A stretch of DNA of 64,000 bases from an uncultured Bacilli bacterium (GCA_947629315.1 CANRDB010000001.1:4829-68828); one strand, 5' to 3'. Counted from the first letter of the stretch, positions 18,448-30,925 are shown. The notes: generated from the sequence alone by a model not told the origin. Numbers and translations are program-made.

Positions 18448-18717
18448 ATGAATGATGAAATATATCAATATGCTCTACAAAAAATTGAGTGTGATAGTCA
18501 ATTCAAGCCAATTGGATGTTATGGTAATTCCCGTGGCAGTACTGGCCCAACTGGCCCTACCGGTCCGACTGGTCCCCAAGGACCCGCTAGCATCACCATA
18601 GGTACCACAACAACAGGCGCTCCAGGAACAAGTGCAGCTGTTACCAATTCTGGTACTAATCAAAATAGTATTTTAAATTTTGTGATTCCTGCAGGAGCAA
18701 CTGATGCTATGTCATAA
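18448..18717 (+). CDS. Small collagen-like (GPT-repeat) protein with a short N-terminal domain and a short C-terminal domain; BclA-like
   Basis: RBS ataggaggt. Sequence MNDEIYQYALQKIECDSQFKPIGCYGNSRGSTGPTGPTGPTGPQGPASITIGTTTTGAPG...ILNFVIPAG. The C-terminal domain is homologous to the C-terminus of the 29421..29834 segment. Confidence 0.6.
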   Translation: MNDEIYQYALQKIECDSQFKPIGCYGNSRGSTGPTGPTGPTGPQGPASITIGTTTTGAPGTSAAVTNSGTNQNSILNFVIPAGATDAMS

Positions 18718-18742
18718 ATCACAAAAAAAGAATTGATTAGAA

Positions 18743-20977
18743 TCAATCCTCAATTTCTTTAATCAACATTTGATATAACGCACGATTTCCTTCCTCTGTT
18801 AAATGAATTTTATCCACTCGTACATATTCTTTATGTTGTTGAATCTCTTCATAAAAAGGAATAATATGGAGAGACGATATTCCCAATGTTTCTAGTAATA
18901 TCTCGTCCTCTTCTGTCATCGCTACTACATATAACTCATTTTCTTGGCACAATTGGAAAACTGTTTGTATTTCTTGTTCCAATCTTGGTACCTGACTATC
19001 AAAAGCTACTACTAATCGATAAGTTAACGTATTACTATCCGCAGCTTTTTGAAGTTCTTGTTGCAAATCTTGCCAAGTAAAATCTTGCCGAACAATAAAC
19101 TGTGCTTGTTGATATTCCTGATGTAGTTCATTAAAAATATTCACTAAAACATCATTACCGTAAAAGGTAATTTTATTTTTTAATTCTTCTTCATGATGAT
19201 GAATAATCTCTTCTTTTTTCTGTTGATATCGATCTAGATAAACTTGATAAATAGATTGATAAATTAAGTTGGTGTAAGCCTTTCTTCCTTCTGGAGTTAA
19301 GTGGATACCATCCGCATAAAAATACTTTGAATGTCCTTGTGATGCAGTCTCCCAATCAATAATATGTAAATTAGAATGACTCTTACTTAACTCTTTTAAT
19401 TTACTATTTACATGGACATCTTTATCGTTAGTAACCGTAATCCAAAAGACATCTCTATCACCACACGTTTGTAAAATTTCTTCCTTACAAGAAGAAGAAC
19501 AATCTCCATTCGCACCCAAATTCAATATTACAGGATTACCTAACAGATTACTATCCTCTAATTCTTCTAAAATACCGTTCGCTACCCAAATAGAACGTGA
19601 TACCTTCGCATCAAAATATCCATTTGGAAATTGTTTATAGAGATTATCAACAGCTCCTAACATAATAGAATCCCCGACTCCAACTACGGATAACTCAGAA
19701 ACAATCTTTTGAATTTCTTGTTCCCCATTCTCTAAATCCTCTAAAACAGAGAACCAATCTTCTTGTTCCTGTTGTAATCGATCCGCATACTCTTTTTGTT
19801 TTTGTTGAATAACCTCTTCATTAGCCGCTAACTCTTCTTTTAGTCTTTTCATTTCTGCCGTATGATCCTTCGTTTGTGCATAACAATAAACACCAGGAAC
19901 ACAGATGACACACAATATGATAGCCATCGCTGCATGCATTCTCGTTCTAGCATGGGGTCGACTACTGATGCTAAAATGAAAAACGGAACCTACTACAAGC
20001 ACTCCTAAAAGAATCGATAAAATCCGTACAGAATCCGACATTGAAAAGGCTTGCAAAAAGTAAATAATCGGATACTGAACCAAGTAGATGCAATAACTTC
20101 TATCTGAAAACCAATGAACAATTCGGTTTCCTACCCCTGCTAATTTGTTTACCATCAAAGTACTATAATCAATCATCCGACAAGTAATAAGAGATACTAT
20201 CAACATTGCTACTGCCCAAGAAGGTGCAGAAGCATCGATTGTTAAAAATAACCAAACTAAGAGAACAAAATATCCTCCAAAAAGACCATAGGCAATCAGA
20301 GAATGTTTCATGTTTTTTAGAATAAGTGGATAATAATAAAACTGAATAAACCCTAAAGTCATTCCCCAAAATAAGGAAAACATTCTCGTAAACGTATGAT
20401 AGTAAACCACCATAATATCTTGCGTGCCACTCATTTGATAAAAATACCAAGCACTTCCTATCGATACTACCAATAATAGTAAACAAGGAATCATTTTATG
20501 AATATGATCTCCTATTTTACGTAATATTTGATAGAAGAATGGAAAAAGCAAATCAAATTGCAATAAAATAGAAATATACCATAAATGCATAAATGGAGAA
20601 TCTAAGTGTCTAGCAAAATAATCTAAATTCGCCCCTAATTGCCAAAAATTATTATATCCTAACAAAACAGATGTTGTCTCTGGTTTTAAATTCAACCATG
20701 TATACTGGGAACAAAAAAACACAACAAAAAGAGTTAAGAACACAGTCAATAACAAAGGAAAATATATTTTAGTAAACAGTCTCTTATAATATTCCCAAAT
20801 AGAAAAATGATTCTTATGAAAAGCTGAAACGCACGATAGATAGCCACTTAACACAAAGAAACAACAGACCGCTAAATAGCCTCCTTTTAAAACATGCAAA
20901 TGATAAAGCAAAACGGCAATGCATGATAACACTCGTAAATAATCTAGTGCATAATAATACTTCTTAGTACTTTCCAT
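18743..20977 (-). CDS. Acyltransferase-3 family membrane protein fused to SGNH hydrolase and an extra C-terminal domain (OatA-like O-acetyltransferase)
   Basis: N-terminal ten-TM acyltransferase_3 pattern (YLRVLSCIAVLLYHLHVLKGG) and an SGNH motif (VGVGDSIMLGAVDNL). Confidence 0.7.
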   Translation of the reverse strand: MESTKKYYYALDYLRVLSCIAVLLYHLHVLKGGYLAVCCFFVLSGYLSCVSAFHKNHFSIWEYYKRLFTKIYFPLLLTVFLTLFVVFFCSQYTWLNLKPETTSVLLGYNNFWQLGANLDYFARHLDSPFMHLWYISILLQFDLLFPFFYQILRKIGDHIHKMIPCLLLLVVSIGSAWYFYQMSGTQDIMVVYYHTFTRMFSLFWGMTLGFIQFYYYPLILKNMKHSLIAYGLFGGYFVLLVWLFLTIDASAPSWAVAMLIVSLITCRMIDYSTLMVNKLAGVGNRIVHWFSDRSYCIYLVQYPIIYFLQAFSMSDSVRILSILLGVLVVGSVFHFSISSRPHARTRMHAAMAIILCVICVPGVYCYAQTKDHTAEMKRLKEELAANEEVIQQKQKEYADRLQQEQEDWFSVLEDLENGEQEIQKIVSELSVVGVGDSIMLGAVDNLYKQFPNGYFDAKVSRSIWVANGILEELEDSNLLGNPVILNLGANGDCSSSCKEEILQTCGDRDVFWITVTNDKDVHVNSKLKELSKSHSNLHIIDWETASQGHSKYFYADGIHLTPEGRKAYTNLIYQSIYQVYLDRYQQKKEEIIHHHEEELKNKITFYGNDVLVNIFNELHQEYQQAQFIVRQDFTWQDLQQELQKAADSNTLTYRLVVAFDSQVPRLEQEIQTVFQLCQENELYVVAMTEEDEILLETLGISSLHIIPFYEEIQQHKEYVRVDKIHLTEEGNRALYQMLIKEIED

Positions 20978-21122
20978 ATTTCAAACCTCATTCATTGTGA
21001 TTATATATCATAAAGCCTTAAAATTCAAGACACTTTACGTCAATCCTAACTAATATTTTGTGAGAAAAAAACATGATTATTTGTTTCATTTTATTTTATG
21101 CAATTAGAAAGGAGTTATACTG

Positions 21123-29420: not shown

Positions 29421-29834
29421 TGCCACTTTGAATGGTTTGCAACTGGTTCTACTGGAGATATCGGTCCTACGGGTCCTACCGGTGATATTGGTCCTACTGG
29501 CCCTACCGGTGATGTTGGTCCTACGGGTCCTACCGGTGATGTTGGTCCTACTGGTCCTACTGGTGATATTGGTCCTACGGGTCCTACCGGTGATGTTGGT
29601 CCTACTGGCCCTACCGGTGATGTTGGTCCTACTGGCCCTACCGGTGATGTTGGTCCTACGGGTCCTACCGGTGATGTTGGTCCTACTGGTGCAACTCCCG
29701 CTCTTACTATTGGAACTGTAACCACCGTTGGTCCAGATGAACCAGCTGCAGCTACTATTACTGGAACTGCCCCTAACTTTGTTCTTAATTTAAGTATTCC
29801 ACAAGGTCCTACCGGTCCTGCTGCTGGAGCATAA
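29421..29834 (+). pseudogene. 3' collagen-like gene segment with ([10 protein letters not shown])x8 plus a BclA-like C-terminal domain; in frame with and contiguous to the recombinase stop codon; no start codon
   Basis: Immediately after TAG the frame reads [22 protein letters not shown]…[48 protein letters not shown]. No in-frame ATG/GTG/TTG precedes the repeats. Confidence 0.6.
29463..29690 (+). repeat. 27-bp tandem coding repeats (ggtcctacgggtcctaccggtgatgtt, about 8 units)
   Basis: Direct inspection; each unit encodes GPTGPTGD(V/I). Confidence 0.8.
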
Positions 29835-29839
29835 TCAAC

Positions 29840-30925
29840 ATGAAAATTATTGTTTATGCTATCGCTAAAAATGAAGAACAATTTGTAAATCGTTGGTGTC
29901 AATCTATGAAAGAAGCAGATGATATCTATGTATTAGATACAGGTTCTACTGATAATACTGTGAAACTATTACAAAATAATGGTGTCCATGTTACAGAAGA
30001 AACTATTCATCCATGGCGCTTTGACACCGCTCGAAATATTTCTCTTGCATTAGTTCCTACCGATGTAGATTTATGTGTATGTACTGATTTAGATGAAGTC
30101 TTTGAAACTGGATGGAGAAAAAAATTAGAACAAGAATGGAACCATCAAGCCAATCGAATTTCTTATTCTTATCACTGGCAATTAGACGAAAATAACAAAC
30201 CTATTATTAGTTTTTACATTAGTAAAATTCATACCCGTCAAAATTATTGTTGGACTCATCCTGTTCATGAAGTATTAACTTATTTAGGAAATCATGAACA
30301 AACACAAATTATTGATGATATTCAAGTATATCATTATCCAGATACGAATAAATCTAGAAGTAGTTATCTTCCACTATTAGAATTATCCGTTCAAGAAGAC
30401 CCATCTGATGACCGCAATATGCACTATTTAGGTAGAGAATACATGTATTATGGCTACAATGATAAAGCTATTGACACATTAAAAAAACACCTCAAACTAA
30501 AAAAAGCTACTTGGAAAGATGAAAGATGTGCATCCATGAGATTTATTGCACGATGTTATGCTAGAGAGGGAAAGTATCAAGAAGCTATAGAATGGGTAAA
30601 GAACGCTATTGAGGAAGCACCTTACTTAAGAGACCCTTATATGGAAAAAGCAATGATTGACTATCAACAACAAAATTGGCAAGAAGTCATTCATTCTAGT
30701 TTACAGGCTCTAACAATTGTTAAAAATCAAAAAACTTACATCAATGAATCTTTCTGTCAAAATGAAGTGATTTATGATTTACTTTCCATCGCGTTTTACA
30801 ACCTAGAATTATATTCTTTCTCTGATTTTTGTATCCAAGAAGCCTTAAAATTTTCTCCAAATAATACTCGCTTGATTGAGAATCAAAAAATTATTCAATC
30901 AAAAAGTAGAAAAGGAAATGTATGA
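29840..30925 (+). CDS. Family-2 glycosyltransferase with C-terminal TPR repeats; starts 5 bp after the collagen-segment stop
   Basis: [23 protein letters not shown]…[11 protein letters not shown] (GT2 DxD-type N-domain). TPR-like helices in the C-terminal half. ATG at 29840 lies 5 nt after the TAA at 29832-34. Confidence 0.7.

Follow-up and report, generated by a model that had tools for sequence, protein, structure and literature searches.

The collagen-like gene and the elements that split it

The window analysed here, a stretch of 64,000 nt of one strand from an uncultured Bacilli bacterium, carries at 18,448-30,925 a locus in which segments of collagen-like coding sequence alternate with genes for large serine recombinases (LSRs). 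A listing of open reading frames (ORFs) together with domain scans identified four Gly-X-Y segments, all in the same orientation (18535-18588, 23149-23265, 26094-26147, and 29445-29696), as well as three paralogous LSR genes, as a first-pass annotation of the sequence had described. No further collagen-like runs or LSRs were found in the 64-kb window, the remainder of which is ordinary chromosome with genes for RNase Y, RecA, MreCD, FtsK, enolase, PolA, SerS, and MurF. The four collagen-like segments are almost certainly pieces of one single gene, which is split by three tandem elements, E1, E2, and E3 (Table 1).

The boundaries of the elements have the structure of attachment (att) sites. In every element the crossover dinucleotide AC lies within the codon pair ACT-GGT (Thr-Gly) of the collagen repeat, whereby the left and right ends share the cores AGCAACTG (E1), GGAGCAACTG (E2), and ACTG (E3), and in each element 18-25 bp separate the LSR stop codon from the crossover. 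The start-less gene fragments open 21-25 bp past the stop codons of LSR1 and LSR3, and the suggestion of the first-pass annotation that att sites lie at such fragment boundaries proved to be exact. A repeat search revealed inverted repeats just inside the boundaries (I2, 23248-23289/26075-26116; I10, 26147-26173/29415-29441), as is expected if the boundary pairs are the attL and attR sites of serine-integrase elements with a dyad-symmetric attP. Comparison of the inner 26-nt arms with the reverse complement of their partners yielded 20 (E1), 18 (E2), and 20 (E3) matches, whereas 188,324 random AC pairs from the same window, located 2.5-5 kb apart, gave 7.1 +/- 2.3 matches (P for at least 18 matches, 2e-5 per pair). 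Non-cognate attL/attR arms agree at 7-12 of 26 positions, compared to 18-20 for the cognate ones. Thus, the ends pair with their cognate partners only and E1, E2, and E3 are three separate units, namely tandem, minimal integrative elements with unrelated ends; a nested arrangement, which had been considered next to a tandem one, does not apply. The attB consensus is roughly CCTACnGGnGCA-AC-TGGTCC, coding for Pro-Thr-Gly-Ala/Pro-Thr-Gly-Pro. For E3, a splice centred on a shared TGCA was tried as well but rejected because it breaks the Gly-X-Y pattern (GPTATGSTG) and has a palindromic centre, whereas the AC of the shared ACTG restores the regular repeat with the same centre as in E1 and E2.

In silico removal of E1-E3 joins the four gene pieces to an in-frame ORF of 807 nt, which encodes a protein of 268 aa. 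This protein opens with an N-terminal domain and a short GPT run, after which two copies of a conserved domain of ~45 aa enclose 45 regular Gly-X-Y triplets. The in-frame splice alone is no proof of selection because conservative recombination restores the frame automatically. A search with the 268-aa protein led to the identification of many intact homologues of 200-230 aa, which have the same order of parts and align over 97-99% of the length. Piece 1 aligns with the N-terminal halves of these homologues. In the interrupted state its ORF (18448-18717) reads into E1 and terminates at 18715-18717 after 89 aa, whereby the final four codons before the stop (DAMS) are E1 sequence. The ORF had been taken for a complete gene, but it is a truncated 5' end, and its supposed C-terminal domain is the internal family domain. 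Piece 4 is followed after 5 nt by a glycosyltransferase gene of the GT2 plus TPR type; the spacing is operon-like, and the two genes do not overlap.

Table 1. Features of the collagen-like locus and of its surroundings (window coordinates; aa, amino acids).
Feature	Position	Strand	Content
Gene piece 1	18448..18703	+	Start codon, N-terminal domain, short GPT run, internal ~45-aa domain, first GAT
E1	18702..23147 (4446 bp)	+	Acyl_transf_3/SGNH gene 18743-20977 (-), LSR1 (+)
attL1	18674..18727	+	B arm, AC 18700-18701, P' arm; P against reverse complement of P' 20/26
LSR1	21123-23120	+	665 aa; Resolvase + Recombinase + Zn_ribbon_recom, YxRLSKE motif
attR1	23120..23173	+	P arm, AC 23146-23147, B' arm
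Gene piece 2	23150..23266	+	39 Gly-X-Y codons, no start codon; E1/E2 junction also in L187
E2	23265..26101 (2837 bp)	+	LSR2, 49-aa ORF (-), Zn-ribbon membrane protein 24984-26012 (-)
attL2	AC 23263-23264		Inverted repeat I2, 18/26
LSR2	23282-24796	-	504 aa; Resolvase + Recombinase + Zn_ribbon_recom, YxRLSKE motif
attR2	AC 26100-26101		Inverted repeat I2, 18/26
Gene piece 3	26104..26148	+	15 Gly-X-Y codons; the 24-aa "stub" of the first-pass annotation
E3	26147..29443 (3297 bp)	+	K/E-rich repeat protein 26257-27651 (+), 29-aa ORF, LSR3 (+)
attL3	AC 26145-26146		Inverted repeat I10, 20/26
LSR3	27831-29420	+	529 aa; Resolvase + Recombinase + Zn_ribbon_recom, YxRLSKE motif
attR3	AC 29442-29443		Inverted repeat I10, 20/26
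Gene piece 4	29446..29834	+	Gly-X-Y repeats, conserved C-terminal domain, stop codon
GT2 + TPR glycosyltransferase	29840..30925	+	Conserved partner gene of the collagen-like family (domain scan)
Predicted attB junction, example			...CCTGCAGGAGCA-AC-TGGTCCTACGG...
Predicted attP junction, example			...GAATGGTTTGCA-AC-TGCACTCACTT...
SpoIIIAH-like	12616-13113	+	4-6 kb upstream of collagen-like gene; also in L014
GerE-like, 68-aa helix-turn-helix protein	13195-13401	+	4-6 kb upstream of collagen-like gene; also in L014
Germane/GerM-like	13449-14405	+	4-6 kb upstream of collagen-like gene; also in L014

The att structure also bears on two ways in which the locus could rearrange other than by excision of the single elements. 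An inversion system was rejected since the att cores are direct repeats and the ends pair with their cognate partners only. A cassette system, in which one expressed 5' end is joined by deletion to alternative 3' cassettes, had been proposed in the first-pass annotation, and the common codon phase (ACT-GGT) of all six crossovers would indeed keep any attLi x attRj deletion in frame. Yet pieces 2 and 3 consist of repeats only and offer neither alternative C-terminal domains nor stop codons of their own, non-cognate ends match at background level, the LSRs are only 30-53% identical to each other, and in relatives one element goes with one 3' end. Thus, we consider such shuffling to be very improbable.

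All three recombinases exceed the cutoffs for PF00239, PF07508, and PF13408 and are LSRs by this domain content. Their catalytic motifs include IYTRLSKEE, and C-terminal to the Zn ribbon a K/E-rich, heptad-like sequence is present. LSR1 and LSR2 share 53% identity across the first 235 aa and 29% across the remainder, while LSR3 is ~30% identical to each of them; judged by these values, the three LSRs are old, divergent paralogues. The best PDB match is SprA of SPbeta (E = 1.8e-15), and the solved structures nearest to the LSRs also include a TnpX-like catalytic domain. NCBIfam, Pfam, and PDB provided no specific name for the LSRs or for the cargo proteins, and no NCBIfam model was matched over its cutoff: the XisF equivalog NF041201 was reached with 68-92 bits at a cutoff of 375, and the Ccr models were also far below theirs. 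LSR1 contains an insertion of ~140 aa within the recombinase domain (residues ~236-378; window 21828-22256), which is absent from LSR2 but also occurs in P0123-P0136, L048, and L161; recombinases of this LSR1 type have 630-696 aa. A natural LSR2 variant from sample ERZ27249360 (L187) shows a 17-aa in-frame deletion at the position of the insertion. This loop is variable.

Each element carries one cargo gene, encoding an Acyl_transf_3/SGNH protein in E1, a Zn-ribbon membrane protein in E2, and a K/E-rich repeat protein in E3. Genes for mobilisation, conjugation, resistance, or phage functions are absent from E1-E3, and the excised circles would lack replication functions. The E2 cargo protein (342 aa) has two Zn ribbons and several membrane helices, with no family assigned beyond the zinc ribbons; it is a conserved cargo of E2-type elements, which always adjoins attR, and the copy in a related locus (L014, 4490-5521) is 74% identical. 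The E3 cargo protein (464 aa) has an N-terminal hydrophobic segment and a unique C-terminal domain and matches no family, whereby tandem repeats of 21 nt and 15 nt in its gene encode K/E/Q-rich and ETKQP-like units.

The gene family, interrupted relatives, and upkeep of the locus

Collagen repeats do break assemblies, and 6 of 80 family loci stop at a contig edge, so that separate loci might have been chained by their repeats in the present assembly. This we regard as extremely improbable. The host species, of a rabbit-gut lineage, is contained in samples that include ERZ27249148, ERZ27249643, and ERZ27249360. Three junction regions recur at 99.7-100% identity in assemblies made independently from three further samples, namely from the 5' fragment into E1 (L019), from the LSR1 end via attR1, piece 2, and attL2 into LSR2 (L187), and from LSR3 via attR3 and piece 4 into the glycosyltransferase gene (L001). 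Pieces 2 and 3, with 117 and 45 bp, are shorter than one read, the order along the DNA is attL and then its cognate attR for every element, and a tandem pair of elements is also present in an unrelated assembly (L186, see below).

In order to place the reconstituted gene, its family was collected. A scan with one genome per species and the family alignment as query yielded 383 loci that encode relatives; a genome-contig scan with the single glycosyltransferase protein as query gave no match. Among the best 80 of the 383 loci most contain an intact gene with a start codon, the GT2-TPR gene adjoins many of them, and almost all derive from gut metagenome-assembled genomes (MAGs) labelled as uncultured Bacilli, Clostridia, or Erysipelotrichaceae. 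On the long contigs L003 and L009, a GT2+TPR gene of 360-366 aa directly adjoins the 3' side of an intact homologue, so that the collagen-like gene and the glycosyltransferase gene constitute a conserved module. A metagenome scan with the glycosyltransferase alignment returned no close relative of the host clade (best match 64%), but yielded the locus L161. In the protein itself the central GPT-rich Gly-X-Y region corresponds to the collagen domain PF01391 (E = 3e-15), the N-terminal domain is rich in Cys and conserved within its own family, and both signal peptide and anchor are lacking. The BclA_C domain (PF18573) is absent from the 5' ORF and the 3' fragment, where Pfam found only Collagen, and also from the closest homologues. 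Hence, the collagen-like protein is not a member of the BclA family in the strict sense; the "BclA-like" label that it had been given, to which the GPT-rich collagen region next to a glycosyltransferase corresponds, applies in a loose sense only. In some species (L040 ~8900-9100, L049 ~10300-10500, L186 1-320), the conserved ~45-aa domain is spread over two adjacent ORFs, which suggests either that collagen-like subunits form chains via strand complementation or that genes are split in some other way.

As had been advised in the first-pass annotation, the locus was compared with relatives that lack all or part of the insertions. Besides the intact genes, these include the closest LSR2 homologues, which occur in two NCBI MAGs (L013, L014) that are syntenic with the window via a SecA2-like gene and, in L014, also via enolase, SpoIIIAH, GerE-like, Germane, and SerS genes. 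In both orthologous collagen-like genes IPAG leads directly into the Gly-X-Y repeat, so that E1 is absent, and the 5' fragment ends with ...GPTGAT, after which a few junk codons and then a convergently oriented LSR gene are found, exactly as at attL2; L013 carries an LSR2 orthologue. L014 contains a single element of the E2 type with 5016 bp, which encodes an LSR, Upp, a uracil permease, and the Zn-ribbon membrane protein. Its start-less 3' fragment runs on to the C-terminal domain and the glycosyltransferase gene, so that E3 is absent as well. Splicing at AC restores an intact ORF of 358 aa, and the P and P' arms match the E2 arms at 22/26 and 19/26 positions. Being absent from L013 and L014, E1 and E3 are apparently recent insertions. 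As a side observation, the uracil permease and uracil phosphoribosyltransferase genes of L014 (5771-7920) are housekeeping-like genes which this element has acquired, and they lie between the genes for the recombinase and the Zn-ribbon protein.

AC-centred LSR elements were also detected beyond these orthologues. They adjoin start-less collagen fragments in L020 and L048, two rabbit-gut MAGs whose glycosyltransferase is 71-72% identical to that of the window, in L161, where the cargo is sigma/anti-sigma, in L017, L018, and L180, where it is a 2452-aa helicase, in L182, and in L186. The locus L186 (Logan SRR17638760, 1-7130), located near LysM and SpoIID genes, has two tandem AC-centred elements with recombinases of 661 aa and 685 aa within one collagen-like gene and thus represents a second, unrelated tandem interruption. 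Dyad-symmetric att ends centred on AC were seen in L014, L161, L182, and L186. DUF4368 is present in relatives, and a full-length LSR in every interrupted relative found. Collagen fragments adjoin 6 of the 7 nearest LSR clusters examined, compared to 0 of 80 relatives on viral contigs from IMG/VR, which are at most 38% identical; a tblastn search of GenBank phages gave no LSR above 40% identity, and neither search linked phage LSRs to collagen-like genes. From these searches a prophage origin of the elements, though conceivable, gains no support.

The interrupted gene does not appear to decay. None of its fragments has acquired a stop codon or a frameshift, and the three LSRs, the six att half-site pairs, and the glycosyltransferase partner are intact, which speaks against the alternative of the first-pass annotation that decayed integrative elements are seen here. 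Among the interrupted copies the ratio of non-synonymous to synonymous substitutions (dN/dS) is 0.14-0.23 for the N-terminal and 0.10-0.15 for the C-terminal domain at dS values of 0.7-2, which is similar to the ratio of 0.07 among intact copies. Between the window and L014 the Zn-ribbon protein (74% identity) and the LSR (57%) are within the range of the flanking host proteins (39-95%), and this divergence is compatible with vertical co-inheritance of element and host genes.

A presumed link to sporulation and the proposed role of the elements

In the upstream regions of the collagen-like family (from L021-L099, L003, L009, L014, and the window), the motif CATAnnnTA recurs directly in front of the ribosome-binding site, at a distance of 24-30 nt from the ATG. 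Of the 73 family promoters 44 contain it, compared to only 23 of 514 other genes from the same loci (4.5%), giving an odds ratio of 32 (p = 6e-30). In C. difficile the sigmaK consensus consists of CATATAAT at -10 and AC at -35, and bclA1-3 are sigmaK-dependent (PMC3789822). By its sequence, CATAnnnTA reads as the -10 element of mother-cell sigma factors of the sigmaE/sigmaK type, and the family would thus probably consist of late mother-cell genes. The window has the variant CGTACCTTA at 27 nt upstream of the ATG (18421-18429), and L014 has CATATTCTA. A scan of the region for sigma-70 promoters and terminators performed no better than on shuffled sequences. Lack of a signal peptide and an anchor is expected of a protein whose assembly onto the spore takes place within the mother cell, and the three sporulation-type genes upstream of the collagen-like gene (Table 1) point in the same direction.

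Small conserved ORFs are located directly upstream of, or overlapping, the LSR2- and LSR3-type genes. The one 5' of LSR2 encodes 49 aa (24768-24917, -; 47 aa in L013, 53-196) and the one 5' of LSR3 encodes 29 aa (27736-27825, +; 31 aa in L020, ~2414-2509); neither matched any family, and none was seen for LSR1. They may be leader peptides or recombination directionality factors (RDFs), for which they are the only candidates. In E2, L013, L020, L017, and L180, where a small ORF precedes the LSR gene, CATAnnnT is found 22-24 nt 5' of this ORF.

Directly upstream of the collagen-like gene, the SecA2-like gene (14652-18366) is found in two frames of 238 aa and 988 aa. The second frame is open back to ~15340, and there are two A-runs nearby, 15315-15320 and 15360-15365. 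In L013 and L014 the orthologous genes are unbroken (1151 and 1124 aa, respectively). Possible explanations of the split are a slip in sequencing, a pseudogene, and a slippery site.

Overall, we consider it probable that E1-E3 are intervening elements of the skin/SPbeta kind, which split a spore-surface gene and are excised in the mother cell. Each LSR, probably together with a partner, would recombine its own attL with its own attR by conservative recombination, so that a circle of 2.8-4.4 kb with a typical dyad-symmetric attP at its joint would be released per element, and the remaining attB would be ordinary Gly-X-Y coding sequence. As in the case of skin/sigK, SPbeta/spsM, and gin/gerE, the mother cell, which is terminally differentiated, would excise the elements during sporulation, while the forespore, that is, the germ-line copy, would keep the elements. 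The gene itself would be a late mother-cell (sigmaE/sigmaK) spore-surface gene, whose product would be glycosylated by the downstream GT2-TPR protein. As the full-length protein needs all three excisions, we propose that the gene functions as an AND gate with three locks. That excision is programmed in the mother cell is the part we favour by a small margin only, by analogy to skin, SPbeta, and gin.

Several observations weigh against this interpretation. No direct sign of excision was found in the sequence data examined, no directionality factor was recognised in E1-E3, and the CATA box is absent upstream of LSR1 and LSR3, whereby the window's own collagen-like promoter is a one-base variant (CGTA). 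A near-identical reconstituted protein did not occur in a collection of 5.8 billion proteins, in which the best full-length match had 54-59% identity. The host belongs to an uncultured MAG lineage, whose sporulation is read from three genes, and many family members are from MAGs labelled as Tenericutes or Mycoplasma, which may or may not sporulate. The shared E2-type insertions could represent independent hits on the same target, which would weaken the dN/dS argument, and the frameshift in the neighbouring SecA2-like gene could reflect local decay or an assembly error.

Some of these points also speak for selfish, target-specific insertions that inactivate a dispensable surface-protein gene and whose excision is rare, unregulated, and not relied on by the host. 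The gene is uninterrupted in most species, E1 and E3 appear to be recent, neither an RDF nor, for LSR1 and LSR3, a mother-cell-type promoter motif was found, the adjacent SecA2-like gene is frameshifted, and restoration of the frame comes automatically with conservative site-specific recombination. However, all four fragments, the glycosyltransferase partner, the att half-sites, and the LSRs are intact, the LSR has its full length in every interrupted relative found, and E2-type elements with intact LSRs persist at 49-57% LSR identity between flanking fragments with dN/dS of 0.1-0.2. We therefore judge this explanation to be rather unlikely.

It might also be that the elements form a stochastic one-way ON switch in vegetative cells, so that a subpopulation expresses the surface protein for bet-hedging or for evasion of phages or the immune system, in the manner of phage regulatory switches that are located in genes unrelated to sporulation. 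The relationship of the LSR catalytic domains to that of TnpX would suit such a switch, since TnpX requires no RDF. Collagen-like surface proteins are typical targets of variation, and there are known cases in which LSR elements control the integrity of a gene as a regulated switch without any relation to sporulation (PMC7192596). Nevertheless, as the circles lack replication functions, the switch could not be reversed and the lineage would lose its elements, which contrasts with their conservation across species; moreover, three independent events would be required, the protein has neither signal peptide nor anchor for a vegetative surface, and the family promoter is sigmaE/K-like. A vegetative switch thus seems improbable, less so than shuffling or misassembly, and excision in the mother cell remains the reading we prefer.

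Comparison to known intervening elements and implications

In the first-pass annotation the locus had been likened to skin/SpoIVCA elements that lie in a collagen-like gene with a glycosyltransferase as its neighbour; the structure agrees with this comparison, while sporulation-specific excision is the part of it that we put forward as presumed. In skin of B. subtilis (sigK; skinCd in C. difficile), as in the present locus, an LSR gene is situated at one border of the intervening element, which itself is degenerate or minimal and not a functional phage; the gene split by skin belongs to the mother cell and regains its ORF via attL/attR recombination (PMC4191935, PMC5025042), as we predict for the collagen-like gene. 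The target of skin is a sigma factor, whereas here a structural collagen-like gene is hit by three elements within 0.8 kb, which are only 2.8-4.4 kb in size with one cargo gene each, whose LSRs are near to no named one, and whose excision is predicted. SPbeta, with a size of 134 kb, is an active phage with a defined RDF, whereas E1-E3 are tiny, non-phage, and tandem and have RDF candidates only. As is proposed for the present locus, the gene that SPbeta (SprA-SprB) interrupts, the polysaccharide gene spsM, serves a glycan or glycoprotein layer of the spore surface, and the recombinase is an LSR in both cases (PMC4191935, PMC5499854). The gin element (GirC-GirX) in gerE of B. cereus ATCC 10987 is also no prophage; it interrupts a small sporulation gene and has several serine recombinases, whereby a small RDF adjoins the recombinase (PMC5595907). 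It is, however, one element of 28.6 kb with three recombinase genes, one of which is active, whereas each of the three elements described here has its own recombinase and att pair.

Several elements per gene or operon are known from heterocysts, where the nifD, fdxN, and hupL elements (XisA, XisF, and XisC, respectively), as well as the fragmented nif genes of Calothrix NIES-4101, are all removed in the terminally differentiated cell, XisF being an LSR (PMC11249958). These belong to another phylum and type of differentiation, and in the present locus one and the same repeat codon motif is hit by every element. Tn4451 and Tn5397 (TnpX/TndX) are likewise small to medium-sized elements with a single LSR and a 2-bp crossover, but their crossover is GA instead of AC, and E1-E3 differ from them in the lack of mobilisation and resistance genes and in the highly specific collagen target ACT-GGT. 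BclA3-SgtA of C. difficile also combines a GPT-rich collagen-like protein with a glycosyltransferase, and its transcription is of the sigmaK type (PMC7157674, PMC3789822), as is predicted here; the likeness of the two loci is one of gene order, and the protein from the window differs by its two copies of the ~45-aa domain in place of BclA_C. In full-text literature searches, which had incomplete coverage, no collagen-like or bclA gene was found to be described as interrupted by a recombinase element. By analogy, E1-E3 would work like sporulation gene-intervening elements, with a multiplicity like that of the heterocyst nif elements (PMC11249958). The present locus differs from these systems in the collagen-like structural target, the insertion site at a repeat codon, the minimal, non-phage nature of the elements, the presence of three locks in 0.8 kb, and an LSR lineage that is dedicated to a gene family.

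Loci of this type will be labelled by gene callers as pseudogenes or tiny "hypothetical" ORFs. If the proposed interpretation is true, at least eight natural LSR/attL/attR sets with readable attB and attP would be available, which are divergent and possibly orthogonal and could be raw material for genome-engineering integrases. The collagen-like gene would be the first structural spore-surface gene of its kind to be controlled by intervening elements and the first sporulation-type gene that needs three independent recombinases, which was previously seen only in heterocyst nif genes. As a tentative extension, which we hold to be possible but somewhat less than probable, there may be an unrecognised guild of LSR mini-elements in uncultured gut Firmicutes that is specialised on the ACT-GGT of collagen-like spore-surface genes and has been domesticated as mother-cell "locks", whereby the repeat target would let locks accumulate and the two- and three-lock loci (L186 and the window) would represent AND-gated developmental genome editing. 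Already if the excisions occur as proposed above, a repetitive coding motif would act as a multi-copy landing pad, and a whole recombinase lineage would be able to specialise on one gene family.

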